Part shown: piece by piece, positions 1,865-12,294 of the stretch
Numbering within the stretch: position 1 is the stretch's first letter
How the letters are laid out: every line of letters begins with the position of its first letter
Assembly (NCBI GenBank): GCA_033853815.1
Contig: JAWOLE010000257.1
Location: 1 to 42,765 of the forward strand
Reading direction: 5' to 3'
DNA: 42,765 bases
Source: Thermoanaerobaculia bacterium
Lineage (GTDB): Bacteria > Acidobacteriota > Thermoanaerobaculia > UBA5066 > Gp7-AA6
Made by a program: the position numbers and the translations under genes
Notes under the pieces: generated by a model
The model's database searches: none
What the model saw: the letters and a program-made list of their open reading frames with translations, nothing else
What the model was told of the DNA's origin: nothing

Positions 1865-1991
1865 GAACTTCTCATACCAGAGCCCGGATTCCAGTCAAGA
1901 TATCAAGAGCTCCCGGCTGCCGGTTGCAACCTGACCGCCAGGGCCGAGAGTCGCGCCACGCCCGGGCGAAAGCCCCGTAGAATCCGCCCGC

Positions 1992-4409
1992 ATGCGATCG
2001 GCCCTCCTGGCCCTGGCGGCCCTCCTGACCGCCGGCGCCCTCCTGTGCGTCGCCGCCGTCGCCTCGACGTTCCCCCGCGAGAGCGGCACCGCGCGAGTCG
2101 AAGGGATCTCCGGACCTGTCACGATCGAGACCGACGCGCTCGGCGTCGTGACGATCCGCGCCGCGAGCGTTCGGGACGCCTGCTTCGGCCTGGGATACGC
2201 GCACGCGCGCGACCGGCTCTGGCAGATGGAGTTTCAGAGGAGGATCGGATCGGGCCGGCTCTCCGAGATCCTGGGCAGGAGAATGATCGAGACGGACCGC
2301 TTCCTGCGCACGATCGGTTTTCGCCGCGCCGCGGCCCAGGCCCTCGGCGGCCTGGCGGCCTCCGTGAGGGCGCAGCTCGAGGCGTACGCTGCCGGCGCCA
2401 ACCAGTACCTCGCCACATCCTCCGCCCGCCCGATCGAGTTCCGCCTGCTGGGCGTCCGCCCCGAGCCCTTCCAGGCCGTGGACTGCCTGACCTGGGGCAA
2501 GATGATGGCCTGGGACCTCGCGTCTGCAAACGCCACCAACGAGATCCGCCGCGCCCGCTTCGTCGCCGCGGTCGGACCCGAGCGCGCCGCCGAGCTCTTC
2601 CCTCCGGTCCCTGCCGAGCCGACGATCCTGCGCGACGAAGAATGGAAGGAGAATTTCGGGTCTCTGACCCCGGTCCCGGCCGTGAAGGCGGGCGCCTCTC
2701 TCCTGTCCCCCCTTTCCCGCTGGGAGGGCCTCGAAGAGCGCCTGGCCCTTCTGGACCGCCTCGGCTTCGGAGGTGAAACGCGGGGCAGCAACTCGTTCGT
2801 GCTCGCGGGCTCGCGGACGCGATCCGGACGTCCGCTCCTCGGAAACGACCCGCATCTGTCCCTGCGCGCGCCGTCTCTCTGGTACCTGGCGCGCCTCGAG
2901 GCCCCCGGCCTCTCCGTCGCGGGAGCGACGCTGCCGGGCGTCCCCAGCGTCATCATCGGACACAACGCCCGCGTGGCCTGGGGCCTGACGAACCTCGAGG
3001 CCGACGTCCAGGACCTCTACCTGGAGGAGACCGACCCGGCGGATCGCGGACGCTACTTTCACGCGGGCGGCTGGCATCGCTTCGACGTCCGTTCCGAGAC
3101 CATCCGGGTTCGCGGCGACCGCGATGTTGCCCTGGAAGTCCGCTCCTCGGTGCACGGGCCGATCGTGACCGACGCCCTGCGGGGAGCCGCGACCCTTTCG
3201 AGCCCCGCCGTGGCGCTCCGGTGGACGGGACTCGACCCGGATGACACGACGAGCGAGGCGTTCGCCGGATTCAACACGGCCGGCGACTGGAGAGAGTTCC
3301 TCGCGGCCGCTTCCCGGTTGAAGGGCCCGCCCCAGAACATCGTCTACGCGGACGTGGACGGGCACATCGGCTACACGGCCTCGGGCGCGGTCCCCATCCG
3401 GCCCCGGGCGGACGGGCTCCTCCCGGTCTCGGGTGGAGGCGCCGACGACTGGACGGGCTACGTGGCGTTCGAGCGGCTCCCCCGAGTCCTCGATCCGCCG
3501 CGCGGGTTCGTCGTCACCGCCAACAACCGGGTCGTGTCGGATTCCTACCCCTACGCCCTGACGCGGGACTGGCCGGAGCCCTACCGGGCGCGGCGCATCA
3601 CGGACAGGATCCTCTCGCAGCCGCTCTGGAGCCCCGAGAACGCCCGCGCGATCCAGCTCGACCAGCTTTCCCTGCAGGCCGAGGAGCTGCTGCCTCTCCT
3701 GCTCGACACGAAGCCTGCCGACCCGGCCTCGGAACGGGCGCTCCGGCTCTTGAAGGGCTGGAACCGCGAGTTCGGCCCCGACTCCGTGCCCGCCTCGATC
3801 TACGCCTCCTGGTACGCGAAGCTCTCCGAGATGCCGCAGGACGAGCTGAAGGACACGCCGGCCGGCAGCGTGCGCTCGCGCTTCATCATCAACGCGTTGA
3901 AGGAGGACTCCCCGTGGTGCGACGACGTGCGGACGCCTCGAAGGGAGAGCTGCGAGGACTTGAAGACCGCCACTCTCTCGGAGGCCGTGGCGACCCTGGC
4001 CGCGAGGCTCGGCAGCGATCCCTCCGCCTGGCGGTGGCGGCGGCTCCACCGGGCCCGCTTCGCTCACGGCGTCTTTGAGAGCGTCCCGGTTCTGAGGGGG
4101 TTCTTCAGCCTGGAGGCGGGCGCCGGCGGCGACGCCTCGACCGTCAACGTCGGCGCCTACAGGCGCGACGGATCCTTCCTCATGACCGACGGCGCGAGCT
4201 ACAGGCAGATCCTGGATCTTTCGGATCTGTCCCGCGGCTCTTATGTCCACACGACCGGGCAGTCCGGCAACGTGTTCGATCGCCACTACCGGGATTTGCT
4301 CCCGCTGTGGCGCGACGGGCACTACATCACTCTCGGCAACCCGTCCGTCCAAACTCTCCGGCTGCAGCCAGCTTCGGGGCTTACGCCCGCGAGACGGTCT
4401 CGGCGCTGA
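1992..4409 (+). CDS. penicillin acylase family (peptidase S45, Ntn hydrolase); possible acyl-homoserine-lactone/beta-lactam acylase
   Basis: 805 aa. Signal peptide [25 protein letters not shown]. Autoprocessing/nucleophile context [29 protein letters not shown] is typical of the S45 beta-subunit N-terminus. Length matches the family. Confidence 0.9.
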
Positions 4410-5097
4410 CGACGCGACGGGGATTGGGTCCGTCTTCGCGGATCTTGCCGTCGAGCAGCCGGATGATCCGGCCCGTGTGCGCCGCGATGTCTTCCTCGTG
4501 GGTGACGAGCACGATCGTGTTGCCGCGGCGGTTCAGATCGTCGAAGAGGGCCATGATCTCCGCGCCGGTCTGCGAGTCGAGGTTTCCGGTGGGCTCGTCC
4601 GCGAGGAGGATCGAGGGGTTGTTGACCAGGGCCCGGGCGATCGCGACCCGCTGGCGCTGGCCGCCCGACATCTCGTTGGGATGGTGCCCCATGCGGTCGG
4701 CCAGGCCCACCGCTTCGAGCGCACGCGCGGCTCGCTCGCGGCGCTCGCGGCGCGAGAGTCCGGAATAGACGAGCGGCAGCTCGACCTGCTGGAGCGCGGT
4801 CGTCCGCGGCAGCAGGTTGAAGGTCTGAAAAACGAAGCCGATCTCCTGATTGCGGATCGCGGCCAGCTCGTCGTCGGTCATCCGCGCCACCTCGCGGCCG
4901 TTCAAGACGTAAGAGCCCGAGGTCGGCGTGTCGAGGCAGCCGATCAGGTTCATGAGAGTGGACTTGCCCGAGCCGGACGGGCCCATGATGCCGACGTACT
5001 CCCCGCGCTCGACGCCCAGCGTCACCCCCGAGAGGGCGTGAACGTTCTCCTCCCCCATCTCGTAGACCTTGGTGATGTCCCGGATGTCGATCAGCAC
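4381..5097 (-). CDS. ABC transporter ATP-binding protein, MacB/LolD/FtsE-type stand-alone ATPase
   Basis: Walker [11 protein letters not shown]-loop FVFQ, signature SGGQRQR, Walker B LLADEPT, H-loop VTHE. Start lies 7 nt after the yip1 stop. Confidence 0.9.
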
Positions 5098-5104
5098 GGG
5101 CGCC

Positions 5105-5845
5105 TCAGAAGATCACGTTCCAGCCCACGCGAACGGCGACGGTCAGGAGCCACAGCGTCCCGATGATGCCGGCGGCGACGCCGCGCCTGGCTTTCGCCGC
5201 CGCGGCGAAGCCCACGACGAGGAGGACGACGACCCAGAGGGCGAAGAGGTCCAGAGACTGGAGCAGGGCGTGCAGGGCTTTGGACGAGTCGGCTGCCACG
5301 AGAAACCCCAGGTTCGAGCGCAACAGGTCCCCCAGGGCCTGAGGATTGACGGTCTCCTGACGGGTGACCAGCAGCATCAGGAACGCCCCCTTCAGGACGC
5401 CGGGCAGATAGGCATGGGCCGTCACGCCGAAGGCCTGCGAATACCGGGCGTCGTAGCCGAACGCCTTGAAGGAGCCCCAGATCACGACGGCGACGAGTGC
5501 GCTCAATGCCGCCGGGGTAACGGCGCCTCCGACCCAGCCGAAGATCGACCCGAATGTCTTCTGCCGCTCGACGATCGAGGCCAGCCGATCTTCCGGGATG
5601 GTCTGGCCGCGGCGCTGCAGCGTGTCCCGCGTCACCTGCTCGTAGTCGATCTTCGGCAGGAGGACGGCGGTGGTCGCGAGCGACAGGATCGTCCAGAGCA
5701 GCAGCGGCGCCAGCCACGTCGGCCTTCGCGCGATGGATTCGAAGGTCCGGACCGGCGAGAAGAACGCGCCCGGAATCCGGCCGACGGCAGAGACCTCCGG
5801 ACCCGCGTCGGAAGCCGGAGGCAGGGCGATGTCCGTCGTCTCCAT
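5105..5845 (-). CDS. Yip1-domain integral membrane protein
   Basis: 246 aa. N-terminal [26 protein letters not shown] followed by five hydrophobic segments, a Yip1/DUF1282-like layout. Start lies 3 nt after the tolC stop. Confidence 0.7.
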
Positions 5846-5848
5846 CGT

Positions 5849-7504
5849 CTAACGGCCTCCCGGCCGCACCTCCACCCGCGGAGGAGGGGTCGACTCCGGC
5901 AGGCCTTCGACCTGGATCCCTCTCCAGTCGAGGATGTCGGCGACCGAGAAGTGGTAGGCGGCGACGGCCTTGCGGAAGATCGTCAGCGCCTGAAGCTCCG
6001 TCGTCCGCGCCGCGGAAAGGGCCTGCTGGATCTGGGTCACCTCGAAGGATGTGGACATGCCGTTGTCGTACTTCTTCTTCGCGGCGTCCAGGTTCGCCTC
6101 CGCGAGCTCGCGCCCCTTCTGCGCGGCCACGATCTGCCGGCGGGCGGTATCGATGGCCCGCGCCGCCGCGCGCACGTCCACGACGACGTTCTGCTCGGCA
6201 GTCGTGTAGGCGGCCTTGTCGGACTCCCATAGGTACCGGGCCGCGCCATAAGCACCGCGGGCCGCGCGGTTCAGGATCGGAAACGAGAAGTTCAGCCCGA
6301 CCGACCAGTTCTTGAACTTGCGGTCGATGACCTGCTGGAAGGCGTCGCCGAAGTTTCCCGTCGAGAGGACCGCGCCGGTCGTCGGGTCGTGCGTGTCGCC
6401 GCCGATGCCGGGGTTTCCGTAGCTCGCCGTGAGGTTCAGGCCGGGCATCACCTGGTTCTTGTAGTAGTCGTACCGGATGCGGTCCGCGTCCACGGTGTAG
6501 GCGGCCGTCAGGACCTCGGGCCGGCGAATGAGCGCGGTCCTGGTCCCTTCCTCGACGTCGATCTTCACGTCCTCGGCGCGAACCTGGTCGGTCGGAGCGA
6601 TCGGCGTCGTGGACCACCGGAGGGGGTCCACGTTGATGACGCGTATCAACCGGTCCTGCGCGTCTCCGATCAACCCCTCGGCGGTGATGATGTCCTGCTC
6701 GGCGGTCGCGATACCGACCTCTGTCTGAATGATCTCGATCGGCGCGAGAGATCCGACGTTGATCTTGATCTGGGTGATCCGGTTCAGGTCCTGCGCGACT
6801 GCCAGCGCTTCCTTCTTCACCGCCAGGTTCTGGATCGCGTAGACGAGGTCCCAGTAGGCCTGCTCGACGGAATTGACGGTCGTTTGGACGCTCCGGACGA
6901 AGGTCTGGTAGGAGGAGTCTCGCGTGTCCCGGGCAATGTAGATCGTCCAGTTGGTCGCCGCCGGCCCGAAGTTGCGCAGCAGGGGCTGGTTGAGCGAGAG
7001 GGTCAGGCTGCTCGAGTAGGAGGGGTTGATGAAGAAAAAGCTCGAGTTGGTGGTCGTCTTGTTCCCCGTGAAGCCGAGCGTGAAGACCCCGCCGGTCGGC
7101 GCGAGTTGCGAAATCTGGGCCCGGGCATCGGTGGTGTCGCTCGTGCTGACCTCCGCCCCGAGCAGCTGCGTATTGGCCGGCTGCTCCGAGTGCGCCCGGG
7201 AGACCTGCGCCTGGACGAGCGGATCGTAGATGCCCAGATCCCCGAACAGCGTGTATCGCGTGGCCTCGGCAGCGTTGACGGCCACGTTCAGGTCCTGGTT
7301 GTTCGCCAGGGCGAGCCCGATCGCCTGATCGAGCGACAGCGGAATGCCCGCCGCGCCCGCCGCCGGCATTTCCCGCGGGGTCCGCTGGCCGGGGCGGGCG
7401 GAGACGACCGGCCGTTCCTGAGCCGGCGCAACGGAGGACAGCGCCAGAAGGCCGGAGGCGGCCGCGGCGGCGCAGATCCTCCAGTCCATCGCGAACCTCT
7501 TCAT
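5849..7504 (-). CDS. TolC-family outer membrane efflux protein
   Basis: 551 aa. Signal peptide, then LSLDQAIGLALANNQDLNVAVNAAEATRY and a second OEP repeat (LAEANLDAAKKKYDNGMSTSFEVTQ). SD AAGGAG lies 7 nt before the ATG. Confidence 0.85.
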   Translation of the reverse strand: MKRFAMDWRICAAAAASGLLALSSVAPAQERPVVSARPGQRTPREMPAAGAAGIPLSLDQAIGLALANNQDLNVAVNAAEATRYTLFGDLGIYDPLVQAQVSRAHSEQPANTQLLGAEVSTSDTTDARAQISQLAPTGGVFTLGFTGNKTTTNSSFFFINPSYSSSLTLSLNQPLLRNFGPAATNWTIYIARDTRDSSYQTFVRSVQTTVNSVEQAYWDLVYAIQNLAVKKEALAVAQDLNRITQIKINVGSLAPIEIIQTEVGIATAEQDIITAEGLIGDAQDRLIRVINVDPLRWSTTPIAPTDQVRAEDVKIDVEEGTRTALIRRPEVLTAAYTVDADRIRYDYYKNQVMPGLNLTASYGNPGIGGDTHDPTTGAVLSTGNFGDAFQQVIDRKFKNWSVGLNFSFPILNRAARGAYGAARYLWESDKAAYTTAEQNVVVDVRAAARAIDTARRQIVAAQKGRELAEANLDAAKKKYDNGMSTSFEVTQIQQALSAARTTELQALTIFRKAVAAYHFSVADILDWRGIQVEGLPESTPPPRVEVRPGGR

Positions 7505-7585
7505 TCCATTACTCCTTCGTCAAGCTTGTTACGCAACAGGAAGGCGAAATGTTTCTCGCGACCTGCCGGCCCGAGCGTATTTCTA

Positions 7586-7734
7586 GCCCGCATTATTCAT
7601 GATCGACTCCGGCCGCCGCTCCGATCAGTCGCGGACAACCTGTCTTTGATCTCGGTCGCCATTCTTCCGTCGCAATCCTCTCTGGCACAATTGGTTGCCC
7701 GTGTTACGGCCAGGTGACCATGAATAATCCGGGC
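7586..7734. repeat. 19-nt inverted repeat pair (GCCCGSATTATTCATGRTC) flanking 111 bp in the tolC upstream region
   Basis: Copy 1 is at 7586-7604. Copy 2 (reverse complement) is at 7716-7734. 17/19 positions match and the core is AT-rich. Confidence 0.6.
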
Positions 7735-7780
7735 TTGGATTCCGGGGGCATCATAAACCAAGGGCGTCCCCTCCCGGGTC

Positions 7781-8773
7781 TCAGGGAACCGGGGCGACGG
7801 GGAGCTCGCCGGGAAAGAAGCAGGCCGCGCAGCGACCGGGAGCGATCTCCGCGAGCACAGGCCGTTCCTGCCGGCATCGTGGGCGCGCGATCGGGCAGCG
7901 GGGATGGAAGGCGCACCCGGCCGGCGGCATGGCCGCCGAAGGCGGCTCGCCCTCCAGGACGACTCGGGTCCCCTTCGAGAAGGGATCGGGGACGGCCGAG
8001 ACGAGCGCGGCCGTGTAGGGATGGAGAGGACGACTCGCCACCTCGGAGGCCGGCCCTTCCTCGACGACGCGGCCCAGATAGAGAACGGCGATCCGGTCGG
8101 AGATCCGCTCGACGACGGCGAGGTCGTGCGAGATGAAGAGATAGGAGAGGCCCTTGCTGGCCCGCAGGTCGAGCAGAAGGTTGACGATCTGGGCGGCCAC
8201 CGACACGTCGAGGGAGGACACGGGCTCGTCGCACACGAGGAACTTCGGACGGGTCGCGAGGGCGCGCGCGATCGCGATGCGCTGGCGCTGTCCTCCCGAA
8301 AACTCCGACGGGAATCGGGAGAACGCCTCGGCCGACAGGCCGACCTCGGAGAGCAGCTGCGCGACGCGGTCGCGGATCTCCCGCCGCCGCGCCAGGTTCT
8401 GGACACGGAGGGGCTCGGCGATCTGATCGCCCGCCGTCATGCGGGGATTCAGCGAGGTCTGCGGATCCTGGAAGATCACCTGCAGGTCGCGGCGCCGCCT
8501 GCGCAGCGCCTTGCCCGAGAGCGCCAGCCAGTCTTCGTCTTCGAAGAATATCCGGCCCGAATCGGGGTCCTCCAGGCGGGCGATCAGGCGGCCGCAGGTC
8601 GTCTTTCCGCTTCCGGATTCTCCGACGAGGCCGAGCGTCTGGCCCCTTGCCACCGTCAGATCGACACGGTCGACCGCCGTGAGGCGCCCCGCGGGCGCCC
8701 CGAAGACGCCCCCGCGGATCGGATAGGTCTTCGTGAGCGCCTCGGCGCGCAGCAGCTCCCCGGCGCCGCTCAC
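7781..8773 (-). CDS. oligopeptide/dipeptide-type ABC transporter ATP-binding protein (OppF/DppF-like)
   Basis: Walker A GESGSGKTT, SGGQRQRIAIARAL, Walker B LVCDEPVSSLD, C-terminal oligopeptide-type extension (HPYTAALVSAVP..CAFHPRCP). GTG start at 8773 overlaps the upstream TGA as GTGA. The longer ORF to 9013 overlaps the upstream gene. Confidence 0.85.
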   Translation of the reverse strand: MSGAGELLRAEALTKTYPIRGGVFGAPAGRLTAVDRVDLTVARGQTLGLVGESGSGKTTCGRLIARLEDPDSGRIFFEDEDWLALSGKALRRRRRDLQVIFQDPQTSLNPRMTAGDQIAEPLRVQNLARRREIRDRVAQLLSEVGLSAEAFSRFPSEFSGGQRQRIAIARALATRPKFLVCDEPVSSLDVSVAAQIVNLLLDLRASKGLSYLFISHDLAVVERISDRIAVLYLGRVVEEGPASEVASRPLHPYTAALVSAVPDPFSKGTRVVLEGEPPSAAMPPAGCAFHPRCPIARPRCRQERPVLAEIAPGRCAACFFPGELPVAPVP

Positions 8774-9780
8774 GCGTTGCCCCCGGATTCCCGGCTCCCG
8801 GCTCCGGGCTCGTAGAGAAAACACCGGGCGAGCCCCTCGCCGGCGGCATAGAGGTCGGGAAGGGAGCGCTCGCACGGCGCGAATCGCTCGGGGCAACGCG
8901 GAGCGAAGGCGCAGACGCCGTCGGGGCGGAAGGCCAGGTCCGGCACGGTCCCGGGGATCGCGCGGTAGCGGGTTCGACCGCCGGCCTCCGGCGCCCCGAT
9001 ACGCGGCATGCATTCGAGCAGACCGCGCGTATAGGGGTGGCGCGGGTTTCGGAAGAGCTCGGCCGTCGGCGCCTCCTCGACCACGCGCCCCGCGTAGAGC
9101 ACGAGCGTTCGGTCGCTGTGCCGGGCCACGGAGCCGAGATCGTGCGTGATCAGGAGGAGCGACAGGCCTCGTTCGCGGCGCAGCCGGTCGAGCAGTTCCA
9201 TCACCTCGGCGGAGACCGTGGCGTCGAGCGCCGTCGTCGGCTCATCGGCGATCAGGATCGCGGGCCTGGCTGCGAGCGCGATGGCCAGGAAAGCGCGCTG
9301 CTTGAGCCCTCCCGAAAGCCGGTGCGGATACTCGAGGAGGCCGCGGTCGGGGTCGGGAAAGGAGACCTCCGCCAGAAGCTCGCGCGCGATCCCGCGCGCT
9401 CGACGCCGGGAGACGCGGCGATGCCGGCGGACCGCTTCCTGGATCTGCGCGCCGATTCTCTGCACCGGGTCGAGCGCGGCCGCCGGTTCCTGGAAGACCA
9501 GCGCGATCTCGCCGCCGCGCACGCCGTTCCATTGCTCCTCCGTCAGGCTCGCGAGTTCGCGTCCCCGACATCGGACCACGCCCGACACACGCGCCGTCTC
9601 CGGAGCGAGCCGGACGAGGGCCCGGGCGAGGAGCGTCTTGCCGCACCCGGTTTCGCCCACCACCGCCAGCGACTCTCCTCCGGCAAGGTCGAAGCTGACG
9701 CCGTTCACTGCCGGCCGCCACTCCCCCTCCAGAGGCAGTTCGACCTTCAAATTCCGAACGGACAGAAGGGGTTCGGTCAT
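8770..9780 (-). CDS. oligopeptide/dipeptide-type ABC transporter ATP-binding protein (OppD/DppD-like)
   Basis: 336 aa. Walker A GETGCGKTL, LSGGLKQRAFLAIAL, Walker B LIADEPTTALD, C-terminal HPYTRGLLECMP..CAFAPRCP. Confidence 0.85.
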   Translation of the reverse strand: MTEPLLSVRNLKVELPLEGEWRPAVNGVSFDLAGGESLAVVGETGCGKTLLARALVRLAPETARVSGVVRCRGRELASLTEEQWNGVRGGEIALVFQEPAAALDPVQRIGAQIQEAVRRHRRVSRRRARGIARELLAEVSFPDPDRGLLEYPHRLSGGLKQRAFLAIALAARPAILIADEPTTALDATVSAEVMELLDRLRRERGLSLLLITHDLGSVARHSDRTLVLYAGRVVEEAPTAELFRNPRHPYTRGLLECMPRIGAPEAGGRTRYRAIPGTVPDLAFRPDGVCAFAPRCPERFAPCERSLPDLYAAGEGLARCFLYEPGAGSRESGGNA

Positions 9781-9792
9781 GGAGCGAGGGGG

Positions 9793-9888
9793 AATCGGAT
9801 CATTGACTCATTGAATCATTGGTTGATTGCGGCTTATCAAATGGGGCAATGAGTCAATGGATCAATGGACCAATGGGTCAATGGGTCA
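9793..9888. repeat. inverted tandem octamer array (3x CATTGNNT, spacer, 6x ATGRNTCA)
   Basis: Left arm 9801-9824, right arm 9841-9888. Reverse complement of the left arm matches the right arm exactly over 13 nt (CAATGAGTCAATG). The TGA stop of the TPR gene (9886-9888) is the end of the last unit. Confidence 0.9.
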
Positions 9889-12294
9889 ATTCTTGTGCGC
9901 TGCCTCGAGTTCCTTGACCCGCTCGGCGACGTCGCGGTACTTGGTGTCGAGACCGTAGACCTCGACGAAGGTCCTGTAGGCGTTCTCCGCGTCCCCGGTG
10001 GATTGGTAGACGCAGGCCAGGTCGTAGAGAAGGCCGACGGTCTCCGCCTCCTTGATGCCGGGAGTCTCGAGCCCCTTGCGGTACCACTTGACGGCGAGCT
10101 GGGGCATCCCCTTCTCCAGGAAACAGAGACCCAGCATGCTGCAGCATTCGACGGCGCGTTGCGGGTCCTTGCTCGCGAGCTGGAATTCCCCGATCGCCTC
10201 GTCGATCAGTCCCATCTCCTTGTAGGCGATGCCGAGATTCGAGTGCGTCTCGTAATCCTCGGCCGAGAGCTGCTGCTCGACCCCCTTCTTGAACTCGCGG
10301 AAGATCTCCTCGAGCGAGACTTCCCCTTCCGGTCCGGACATCTCGGGGGCCTCCGACGCCGCGGGAGAGTCGGCCAGCTCCTTTTCCATTTCATCCGCCA
10401 GATTGAAGAACCGCTGCTCGTCGGCGAAGAGGCTCTGGCCGTCCACCGCGGGCGCGGCTTCGATGGGAGCGGCCGACTTCCCGCCCGCCTTGCGCATCTC
10501 CTCGTCGATCAAGGATTCCAGGCCTTCGGAGGAGATGAGCTCGGAGTCCGCATCCTCGAGCCGGGGGGGAGGGGCCGCGGGGGCGAGGCCCCGGGCACCC
10601 CTGCCGGCCGGCGGAGCGAACACGAGCGGCGGCGGGCTTTCTCGCGGAGGCGGGATCGGCTCGGCTCCGAAATCGTCGAAGAATTCCGCGGAGGCCGCCG
10701 GGCGCGGCTCGACCGGAAATTCCTCGTACGCCTCGGCCGGGGGGGGCGGCGGCGCGGGCGGCGCGACGGACACTCCCAGCCTGGAAAGAACAGCCTCGGC
10801 CTTCTGCGGTTCGCCGCGTCGGCGATAGAAATCGGCGAAGGCCTCCGCTTCCTGGGCGAGCGCCGGATTGCTCGACGCCGCCATCAGCTCGAGCAGGCGC
10901 TCGCGGGCCGGGAAGAAATCGGGGTGATTGCGCGCGACCGTGCGAAGCCTCTCGACGGCTTTGTCGGTCAGGCCGTACCGGGAAAAGATCTCCGCCTCGA
11001 CGATGAGGGTTTCGAGCTCCCTCTGCTCGGGAACGGCCTGGGAGGGCGGGCCGCCCGCGGCCGGAGCCGCAGCGGGCGGAGCCCCGGCGGGACCCTCCTC
11101 GACATCGACGACGACCTCCTCCTCGGCCCCCGCCATGCCGGCGGTTCGCAGGAGCTCGGACAGGCGCGCCGCCGCCTCGGAGTCTCCGGGGGCGGCCGCC
11201 GCGGCGCGCCGATAGTTCTCGACGGCGGAGGCCAGGTCTCCCCTGCGCTCATCTTCGCGCGCCAGCGCCATGCGAAGCCGCGCCGCCTCGGCCGCGTTGC
11301 CCTCGGCCTCCCGGACCTCGGCCATCTTCTGAAGGGAATCCCGGTGCGCTTCTTCAATCTGCAGGATCATCGACAGGTAGCCGGCGGCCCGCGTGAAGTC
11401 CCCCGCGGCCGTCGCCGCGTCCACCAGCGGCGAAACGTCGGCGAGCGCGGCCTCGAAGTTCGCCTCCGCCAGATGGGCGCGGCACAGAGCCAGGCGGGCT
11501 CCCGTGTGCGCGTCGTCCAGAGCGACCGCCTGCTCGGCGCTCCGCACGGCCTCGGCCTTCTGTCCCAGCTCGATCTGCGCCTCGGCCATGAGCACCAGGC
11601 TGTCGGCCGTGCGCGGCGCCGCCTTCAGGATCGCCAGGGCCGCCGCCGGGTTCTTCTGGGACAGCAGCGAACGCACCAGCGTGTTGCGGGCCGCGGCATC
11701 CTGCGGGGACAGCTCGAGCGCCTTCTGGAAGACCGCCGCGGCTTCGTCCTCGGCGCCGCGCCGCAGGAGCATCGAGCCGACAAGGCCGTACTGCATGACC
11801 GCGTTGTCGAGCTGGTTGACGCTGCGATAGAGATCGGCGAGGCGGACCTGGATCTTCAGGTCGTTGGCGTCTACCGACACCATCTTCTTGTAGACCGCGA
11901 TGGCCTCTTCCGGCATGGTGTTCTTCTGGTAGTGGTCCGCCAGGACCTGATACTGCGTGCGGGCGTCCTGGACGAGCCCCTGCTTGGCGTACAGGTCGCC
12001 CAGCCGCTCATAGACCTCCAGACGCGCGGGGTCGATCTTGTTGATCTTCTTGTAGATCGCGATCGCTTTCAGGAAGAAACCGTCGACGGTGCAGACCTCC
12101 GCGATCCGCGTGAAGAAGGGGATCGAGTCCGGGGCGCGGTTGACGCGGACGTAGAGGTCGCCCACCTTGTTCAGGGTCGAGATGTCTCTCGGGTTCTCGT
12201 CGAGCACCCGCAGGTAGTCCTTCAGGGCATCGTCGAACCTGCCCCTGGCGATGTGCTTTTCGGCGGAGCGAAGCAGTTGGTCGCGCGTTGGCAC
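9886..12294 (-). CDS. large TPR-repeat protein with central Pro/Ala-rich linker
   Basis: About 802 aa from GTG 12294 (VPTRDQLLRSAEKHIARGRFDDALKDYLRVL). TPR-like helices occur at both ends and a low-complexity segment (PPAPPPPPAEAYEEFPVEPRP) in the middle. ORF sequence upstream of 12294 overlaps rnhB in another frame and is not credible. Confidence 0.75.
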   Translation of the reverse strand: MPTRDQLLRSAEKHIARGRFDDALKDYLRVLDENPRDISTLNKVGDLYVRVNRAPDSIPFFTRIAEVCTVDGFFLKAIAIYKKINKIDPARLEVYERLGDLYAKQGLVQDARTQYQVLADHYQKNTMPEEAIAVYKKMVSVDANDLKIQVRLADLYRSVNQLDNAVMQYGLVGSMLLRRGAEDEAAAVFQKALELSPQDAAARNTLVRSLLSQKNPAAALAILKAAPRTADSLVLMAEAQIELGQKAEAVRSAEQAVALDDAHTGARLALCRAHLAEANFEAALADVSPLVDAATAAGDFTRAAGYLSMILQIEEAHRDSLQKMAEVREAEGNAAEAARLRMALAREDERRGDLASAVENYRRAAAAAPGDSEAAARLSELLRTAGMAGAEEEVVVDVEEGPAGAPPAAAPAAGGPPSQAVPEQRELETLIVEAEIFSRYGLTDKAVERLRTVARNHPDFFPARERLLELMAASSNPALAQEAEAFADFYRRRGEPQKAEAVLSRLGVSVAPPAPPPPPAEAYEEFPVEPRPAASAEFFDDFGAEPIPPPRESPPPLVFAPPAGRGARGLAPAAPPPRLEDADSELISSEGLESLIDEEMRKAGGKSAAPIEAAPAVDGQSLFADEQRFFNLADEMEKELADSPAASEAPEMSGPEGEVSLEEIFREFKKGVEQQLSAEDYETHSNLGIAYKEMGLIDEAIGEFQLASKDPQRAVECCSMLGLCFLEKGMPQLAVKWYRKGLETPGIKEAETVGLLYDLACVYQSTGDAENAYRTFVEVYGLDTKYRDVAERVKELEAAHKN

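Follow-up and report, generated by a model that had tools for sequence, protein, structure and literature searches.

A tolC-yip1-ATPase gene triad in Acidobacteriota as a candidate split form of a YknWXYZ-like, MacB-type pump

The described system closest to the locus reported here is YknWXYZ of Bacillus subtilis and B. amyloliquefaciens, in which a membrane fusion protein (MFP, YknX), a nucleotide-binding domain (NBD, YknY) and a permease (YknZ) are accompanied by YknW, a fourth subunit of the Yip1 family. According to two reviews, YknW affects the oligomerisation of YknX or the interaction of YknX with YknYZ and is needed for function (PMC4338810; PMC8277102), and a third describes it as absent from the conventional tripartite pumps of Gram-negative bacteria (PMC5985334). 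That YknW associates physically with the MFP and the transporter is known only from reviews on B. subtilis. YknW has so far been treated as a Bacillus oddity. Within the partly accessible literature covered by our searches, no published description was found of a YknW-type operon linked to TolC or of such an operon in split form. The subject of this report is a tolC-yip1-ATPase triad in a 42,765-nt stretch of DNA, below called the window, which is contig JAWOLE010000257.1 (C257) of the Thermoanaerobaculia bacterium assembly GCA_033853815.1. The genome to which the window belongs, G000, is a metagenome-assembled genome (MAG) of 4.06 Mb in 477 contigs and is 95.65% complete; further genomes, contigs and loci are cited by working numbers (G, C and L). 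In the diderm phylum Acidobacteriota, operons of the TolC-linked MacAB type regularly include a YknW-like Yip1 protein, and the triad of the window is most likely part of a TolC-linked, YknWXYZ-like MacB pump in split form and not a permease-less machine. The triad consists of the following genes:

7504..5849, minus strand: TolC-family outer-membrane factor, 551 aa, with an N-terminal signal-peptide-like segment and Pfam OEP
5845..5105, minus strand: YknW-like Yip1-domain inner-membrane protein, 246 aa, about five transmembrane (TM) helices, Pfam Yip1
5097..4381, minus strand: stand-alone MacB/LolD-family ATP-binding cassette (ABC) ATPase, YknY-like, 238 aa, ABC_tran

The tolC and yip1 genes are separated by 3 nt, yip1 and the ATPase gene by 7 nt. 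Both the reading frames with their spacing and the domain identities that a first-pass annotation had proposed for these genes from the sequence alone were borne out by profile searches. In the TolC-like protein, Pfam OEP (PF02321) matches two stretches with 135 bits, and TIGR01844 reaches 106 bits, under its cut-off of 225, an assignment at the family level only. The Yip1 protein scores 55.5 bits with Pfam Yip1 (PF04893; cut-off 28.6), and its AlphaFold2 (AF2) model, with a mean confidence (pLDDT) of 93.7, agrees with the five TM helices first proposed and places helices at residues 45-65, 85-128, 135-161, 200-216 and 221-245. The ATPase matches Pfam ABC_tran (PF00005) with 123.5 bits; its top NCBIfam matches are the N-terminal half of MacB (270 bits), LolD (237.6 bits) and DarD, and its translation contains an intact Walker A motif (GPSGSGKST), Q-loop, signature (MSGGQ), Walker B motif (ILLADEPT) and H-loop histidine. 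Neither an FtsX permease nor an MFP is encoded in the window, as the first-pass annotation had stated: the Pfam FtsX scan of the genome gave no match there, and the HMMs (hidden Markov models) of the five-gene operons described below match only the TolC, Yip1 and ATPase proteins on C257.

Like YknWXYZ, the window thus encodes a Yip1-family protein together with a MacB-type NBD, and the gene order of its relatives, Yip1-MFP-NBD-permease, is that of yknW-X-Y-Z with tolC in front. The window differs in that its host is a diderm with tolC as the first gene of the operon, and in that equivalents of yknX and yknZ are missing in cis; its Yip1 protein matches the NCBIfam model YknW_fam (NF052650) over the full length, but with 79.3 bits it stays under the family cut-off of 110. 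With MacAB-TolC, a type VII ABC system working by mechanotransmission, the window shares a MacB-nearest NBD and a TolC-family exit duct, and the candidate partners in trans are MacA-like MFPs and permeases with MacB_PCD and FtsX domains. It differs from MacAB-TolC by the extra Yip1 subunit, by an NBD and a permease that are separate polypeptides encoded at separate loci, and by a candidate partner module with three permease paralogues; a MacB_PCD+FtsX permease and a MacA-like MFP are both missing from the window, the nearest MFP in the genome being that of contig C366. Type I secretion (HlyB/HlyD/TolC) does not fit, as neither a fused six-helix ABC_membrane domain (the 238-residue ATPase has ABC_tran only) nor an adaptor was found in the window. 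With respect to LolCDE, the ATPase scores under the LolD equivalog cut-offs (TIGR02211, 237.6 versus 307.75; PRK11629, 217.7 versus 360).

A Yip1 homologue occurs in 277 of 401 Acidobacteriota genomes, G000 included. From the 400 other genomes, the 29 loci with the best non-self Yip1 matches, flanked by about 1.5 kb each, were classified by HMMs built from Pfam-verified members and run on six-frame translations. The order Yip1-MFP(-ATPase) was found in 19 of the 29, with TolC upstream in 16 of these 19. Seven loci, from the family of the window, its order and one distant genome, have the order TolC-Yip1-ATPase with no room for an MFP; one of them (L035) comes from the unpublished genome G024, and leaving it out gives 6 of 28. 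The remaining three consist of Yip1 alone, oppF-Yip1 and a contig end. Wider stretches of 8-14 kb were obtained for 20 loci from a subset of the same genomes, which are not independent of the 29. By Pfam and local HMMs, 15 of these have the order TolC-Yip1-MFP-ATPase-permease (the pentad), with the permease displaced by 3.9 kb in one; in three the order is the same minus TolC, and two have no adjacent pump. The MFP of the pentad carries HlyD_D23/HlyD_3 domains and its permease MacB_PCD+FtsX. An otherwise pentad-like locus, L076 of G323, has an FtsX-domain gene (2877-3947) instead of tolC directly upstream of Yip1.

As judged from sequence comparison, the ATPase, TolC and Yip1 protein of the window are orthologues of the pentad members, and the triad very probably derives from the pentad. 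For scoring, HMMs were trained on pentad members only, and the ranges given for the pentad include members not used for training:

ATPase: pentad members 387-425 bits; triad ATPases 392-408 bits; other G000 ATPases at most 324 bits
MFP: pentad members 402-600 bits; best in G000 371 bits
Permease: pentad members 609-668 bits; best in G000 397 bits

The window ATPase reaches 401 bits with the ATPase model and the window TolC 553 bits with the TolC model. In a tree of the ATPases (IQ-TREE) the triad proteins are placed on short branches among those of the pentads. The pentad MFPs and the pentad permeases form clades with support values of 0.975 and 0.999, respectively (FastTree), neither of which holds a sequence from a triad genome. 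Since G000 is 95.65% complete and split into 477 contigs, a gap in this genome alone proves little, and the absence of the pentad MFP and permease rests on four triad genomes that are 97-99% complete: G286 (2 contigs), G357 (4), G389 (6) and G154 (about 40). In these four, the permease and MFP of the G131 pentad as queries found no pentad-type counterpart, reaching only 291-307 and 158-186 bits; as a control, the scores of the same queries with the G070 pentad are 391 and 297 bits.

G286 and G389 each have, 25-30 kb from the triad, an operon with a complete set of MFP, ATPase and permease genes and a HAMP-GAF histidine kinase gene behind it (L094, 5692-11641, and L095, 3069-8963). This operon was considered as the relocated remainder of the pentad and rejected because its ATPase is only 58-60% identical to that of the window and neither its MFP nor its permease belongs to the pentad clades.

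The triad is retained as a unit. A block ffh-rimM-trmD-TPR-oppD-oppF-tolC-yip1-ATPase, followed by the acylase gene, is syntenic in five related MAG loci, in which TolC is 75-81% identical to that of the window; the part from the TPR (tetratricopeptide repeat) gene to the ATPase gene is kept in three members of the family and two of the order, and oppF-tolC-yip1-ATPase is also present in G204, which is filed in another family. The triad, on the recurrence of which the first-pass annotation had made its proposal depend, is conserved at the level of the order. Around the triads of the family and order relatives, no MFP or permease gene was found in the 16-18 kb fetched for each; the contig of G204 measures only 6.7 kb. 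The ATPases of L028-L033 are 92-93% identical to the window ATPase (tblastn). All three genes are under purifying selection: relative to the four nearest relatives, beyond which pairs are saturated, the ratio of non-synonymous to synonymous substitution rates (dN/dS) is 0.17-0.27 for TolC, 0.27-0.32 for Yip1 and 0.07-0.10 for the ATPase. In L085 of G357 (9965-11500) the Yip1 and ATPase frames are broken. A pseudogenised triad was rejected for this genome: the reading frame changes several times from one strongly conserved stretch to the next, a pattern typical of indel errors, and the breaks probably reflect long-read indel error and not decay. Contigs from the RNA libraries of one soil metatranscriptome study (Logan contigs) show no differences over 280 nt and 488 nt of tolC and 196 nt of the ATPase gene, with DNA carry-over possible; none covers 5423-5693 within yip1, and none spans any gene junction by 31 nt or more.

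Candidate genes for the missing functions are found at another locus of G000. Contig C366 carries genes for a MacA-like MFP and one permease, together with the N-terminal half of another permease gene, all divergent from a tadA-like deaminase gene; at its start, contig C391 has the C-terminal half of a permease gene, behind which come a third permease gene and one for a Ser/Thr kinase. As the ends of the two contigs overlap by exactly 127 nt, they are taken as one locus, MFP-permease-permease-permease. Neither a MacB-type ATPase nor an adjacent outer-membrane factor (OMF) match was found in it; at its far end, C366 has an ABC fragment that, judged by its position, is probably the counterpart of a DrrA-type ATPase that in G357 goes with an ABC-2 permease. 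An ATPase-less operon of two or three permease genes behind an MFP gene, likewise with no OMF match next to it, is present in all eight triad genomes examined (G000, G357, G286, G389, G095, G246, G154 and G204, a count that leaves out G024). Within G000 the MFP of C366 is the top match of the pentad MFPs, with 35% identity versus at most 28% for the others. Five pentad genomes were examined for the same module. G005 and G165 contain homologous MFP-ATPase-permease-permease operons with an ATPase of their own, in G131 and G056 the C366 MFP finds the MFP of the pentad itself as its best match, and the fifth, G070, is taken up below. G009 has a Yip1-MFP-permease-permease operon with its own Yip1 and without an ATPase. 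Since homologous modules carry their own ATPase in some genomes and their own Yip1 in another, the parts of the pump appear to be interchangeable; TolC, Yip1 and NBD on the one hand and MFP and permeases on the other are, by gene content, complementary sets, and their parts seem to have recombined across the phylum. The Yip1 (97.6 bits) of the G009 operon (L082, 6788-11409, minus strand), directly upstream of the MFP gene, is a second, divergent one; the better-matching Yip1 of this genome stands alone near rpoA and fusA.

We propose, with a probability of roughly 0.6, that the triad supplies the channel, a YknW-like accessory protein and the motor of a MacAB-TolC-type pump that is completed in trans by an MFP-permease operon, and we hold with the same confidence that the MFP and the permeases would be those of the C366+C391 module. 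Such partners encoded elsewhere had been the fall-back reading of the first-pass annotation, which had also counted FtsX permease and MFP genes at another place as speaking against its preferred one; in gene content these genes are there, in G000 and in the seven other triad genomes examined, and their physical pairing with the triad is what we infer. The ancestral order in Acidobacteriota would have been tolC-yip1-MFP-ATPase-permease, and the pentad's own MFP and permease genes would have been lost in the order of the window. The NBD dimer would dock on permease dimers, and the ATP-driven motion of the periplasmic permease domains would push substrates from the periplasm or a membrane leaflet through a hexamer of the MFP into TolC. 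The substrates are probably peptides or lipopeptide-like toxins, and Yip1 may tune the assembly of MFP and permease, as reported for YknW; both the substrate and this role are deduced from the relatives.

Several observations weigh against this proposal. The pentad genome G070 also has an ATPase-less module, which is therefore not exclusive to triad genomes. G000 contains at least three further ATPase-less loci with MacB-type permeases (C299, C440, C442) and two other MacB-type ATPases without a nearby FtsX match (C92:14963 and C20). The backbone of the ATPase tree is poorly resolved, with bootstrap values that did not converge (IQ-TREE), and the triad genomes represent only about three lineages, the members of which are kin and not independent. 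From the G070 module, the extra ATPase-less loci and the two other orphan ATPases it follows that the loci do not pair one to one; the window ATPase may serve one module or several.

This leads to the likeliest of the alternatives, clearly less probable than the proposal above, in which the ATPase, TolC and Yip1 of the window would be a power and exit unit shared by the modules on C366+C391, C299, C440 and C442. G000 has 25 FtsX-domain matches. A MacB-type ATPase is encoded no more than 2.5 kb away from 16 of them, and for the other nine there is none on the same contig or up to a distance of 13 kb; only three MacB-type ATPases are without a nearby FtsX match (that of the window and the two named above). 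The modules on C299, where the permease is divergent from the MFP, on C440, with a single permease, and on C442 were confirmed by Pfam, and selection constrains the ATPase much more strongly than its neighbours (dN/dS 0.07-0.10). The NCBIfam model of the ADOP family of duplicated permeases, which we take to stand for Acidobacterial orphan permeases, matches these permeases weakly. Against sharing, the NBD is always the most conserved subunit of an ABC system, so that a low dN/dS is expected in any case; the short contigs C147 and C327 may hide ATPases; and C442 has its own OMF and adjoins another ABC system. It is only a tentative suggestion that pumps in this order have become modular, with a conserved tolC-yknW-NBD unit, beside the single oppDF pair of the genome, plugging as shared motor, exit duct and adaptor hub into four ATPase-less loci of G000 (six permease genes) and Yip1 recruiting the common parts to alternative modules. 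ATPases shared by several sugar importers are exemplified by MsmX and MsmK, which the window NBD gene resembles in being unlinked from permease loci and possibly shared among them; MsmX and MsmK differ in serving importers of another ABC type, and sharing in the present case is a possibility. Orphan permeases of the ADOP type (TIGR03434) are comparable in that FtsX-type permeases of G000 have no adjacent ATPase and give weak partial matches; they differ in that the G000 proteins score 113-123 bits versus a cut-off of 622, are single and not duplicated, and come with an MFP.

Some further properties of these loci were recorded. On C442 (L122), positions 3109-6825 form an MFP-permease-OEP operon with a MacB-type permease and its own OMF, without a MacB-type ATPase, followed by an ABC-2 system. 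The permease on C440 is the orthologue of that of L094 and L095 and has no ATPase in G000; C299, likewise without an ATPase, encodes an MFP related to the L094/L095 operon and a permease of a sister branch. In contig C2 of G286, about twenty consecutive FtsX-domain matches in long frames of the duplicated-permease type occupy approximately 1,150,000-1,185,000, with two MacB-type ATPase matches among them.

The preferred interpretation of the first-pass annotation was that Yip1 itself is the transmembrane partner of the ATPase, in a system that works with TolC and lacks both permease and adaptor. In its favour, 7 nt separate the Yip1 gene from the ATPase gene in the window and the two are adjacent in 7 of the 29 loci, all three genes are under purifying selection, and according to one review the overproduction of YknW by itself confers limited protection against SDP (PMC8277102). 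In addition, a conserved N-terminal motif (P31/F35/P42) precedes TM1 in what is, in the assumed topology, the only sizeable part facing the cytoplasm. This interpretation was nevertheless not supported and is very unlikely, as 19 of the 29 loci combine an orthologous Yip1 with a complete MFP-ATPase(-permease) set. In the AF2 model, the two inner loops would comprise only about 4-6 residues if the N-terminus is cytoplasmic, and no loop resembling a coupling helix is apparent. In ABC ATPases the region after the Q-loop accepts the coupling helix of the permease. This MacB-family docking region is unchanged in the window ATPase: the Q-loop and helical-subdomain residues F88-Y111 do not vary among 28 ATPases from triads and pentads. 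We also know of nothing that, without an MFP, would join an inner-membrane protein to TolC. A Foldseek search of the PDB with the Yip1 model gave no match at E ≤ 0.001, and in a wide VIA-align search the best Z was 5.9, with ABC transmembrane domains at a root-mean-square deviation of about 11 Å, within the noise for helical bundles. The predicted complex of two ATPase and two Yip1 chains, from 28-row alignments, scored 0.00 versus a mark of 0.32; made without controls, it is evidence neither way. Because Yip1 lies beside the MFP/ATPase genes in 19 of the 29 loci and occurs with a permease in the 18 pump-holding loci among the 20 wide ones, it is probably, like YknW in YknWXYZ, an accessory or assembly subunit that does not take the place of the permease. 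G000 has one more Yip1 gene by Pfam, on C400 (2052-2573, minus strand; 56.4 bits), which does not match the HMM of the pentad-type Yip1.

Least likely of all is that the triad is a decaying, non-functional leftover of a deleted pentad, for even though the MFP and permease genes are gone and the Yip1 and ATPase frames of G357 are broken, these breaks look like indel sequencing errors, dN/dS is 0.07-0.32 with every ATPase motif intact, relatives from the family and the order and one distant genome share the arrangement, and, as weak evidence, the RNA-library contigs match parts of tolC and of the ATPase gene exactly.

The complete pentad, the ATPase-less module and the TolC-Yip1-NBD triad form a natural series of architectures in which the role of the fourth subunit can be probed. 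The split form would be a test case for type VII ABC permeases that share an NBD and might explain what powers the numerous orphan FtsX permeases of Acidobacteria. In annotation, caution is advised, as triads of this kind are not to be taken as novel permease-less systems.

The neighbouring genes of the triad are as follows; the start of oppF was placed by aligning relatives:

1992..4409, plus strand: acylase of the penicillin-amidase family (Ntn-hydrolase), Penicil_amidase 767.8 bits, convergent with the ATPase gene
7781..8782, minus strand: OppF/DppF-like ABC ATPase, ABC_tran and oligo_HPY, NCBIfam dipeptide ABC ATP-binding subfamily 355.7 bits
8770..9780, minus strand: OppD/DppD-like ABC ATPase, ABC_tran and oligo_HPY, NCBIfam OppD subfamily 256.9 bits
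9886..13149, minus strand: TPR protein of 1087 aa, TPR Pfam families, first gene of the TPR-oppD-oppF-tolC-yip1-ATPase block

A second ABC system of G000 is divided between loci. The oppD and oppF genes of the window are the only genes for oligo_HPY ATPases in G000 and have no permease or binding-protein gene nearby in the window, and an oppA-oppB-oppC set without ATPases lies on contig C275 (L121); the Opp importer therefore appears to be split as well, which indicates that unlinked NBD genes are tolerated in this genome. Three genes for NBDs without a transmembrane domain, oppD, oppF and the triad ATPase gene, thus cluster in the window. The oppF gene ends 276 nt before tolC on the same strand. 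Scans of positions 4000-10200 for sigma-70-like promoters (0 sites versus 0.3 expected) and for terminator-like sites (4 versus 3.1 expected) are uninformative for this phylum. Genes of the opp type recur upstream of Yip1 elsewhere: in L074 of G046 (1884-4702) Yip1 is immediately preceded by an orphan oppD-oppF-like pair, and in L081 of G014 (7087-10847) by an oppF-like gene, with oppD farther upstream beyond a methyltransferase open reading frame and no pump after Yip1.

On the other side of the triad, the next gene downstream is the convergent acylase gene, as first annotated, the 3' end of which overlaps that of the ATPase gene by 29 nt. It forms the 3' boundary of the operon and occupies the position of the permease gene in pentad loci. 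Its location downstream of the ATPase gene is conserved in relatives at the family level (L028-L033 and L084), one instance being contributed by the unpublished G024. The acylase, predicted to be periplasmic, gives a weak match to PvdQ (73 bits). In Pseudomonas, pvdQ presumably lies near the MacAB-like pvdRT-opmQ genes, and the resemblance to an acylase gene next to the triad ATPase is offered as a lead only.

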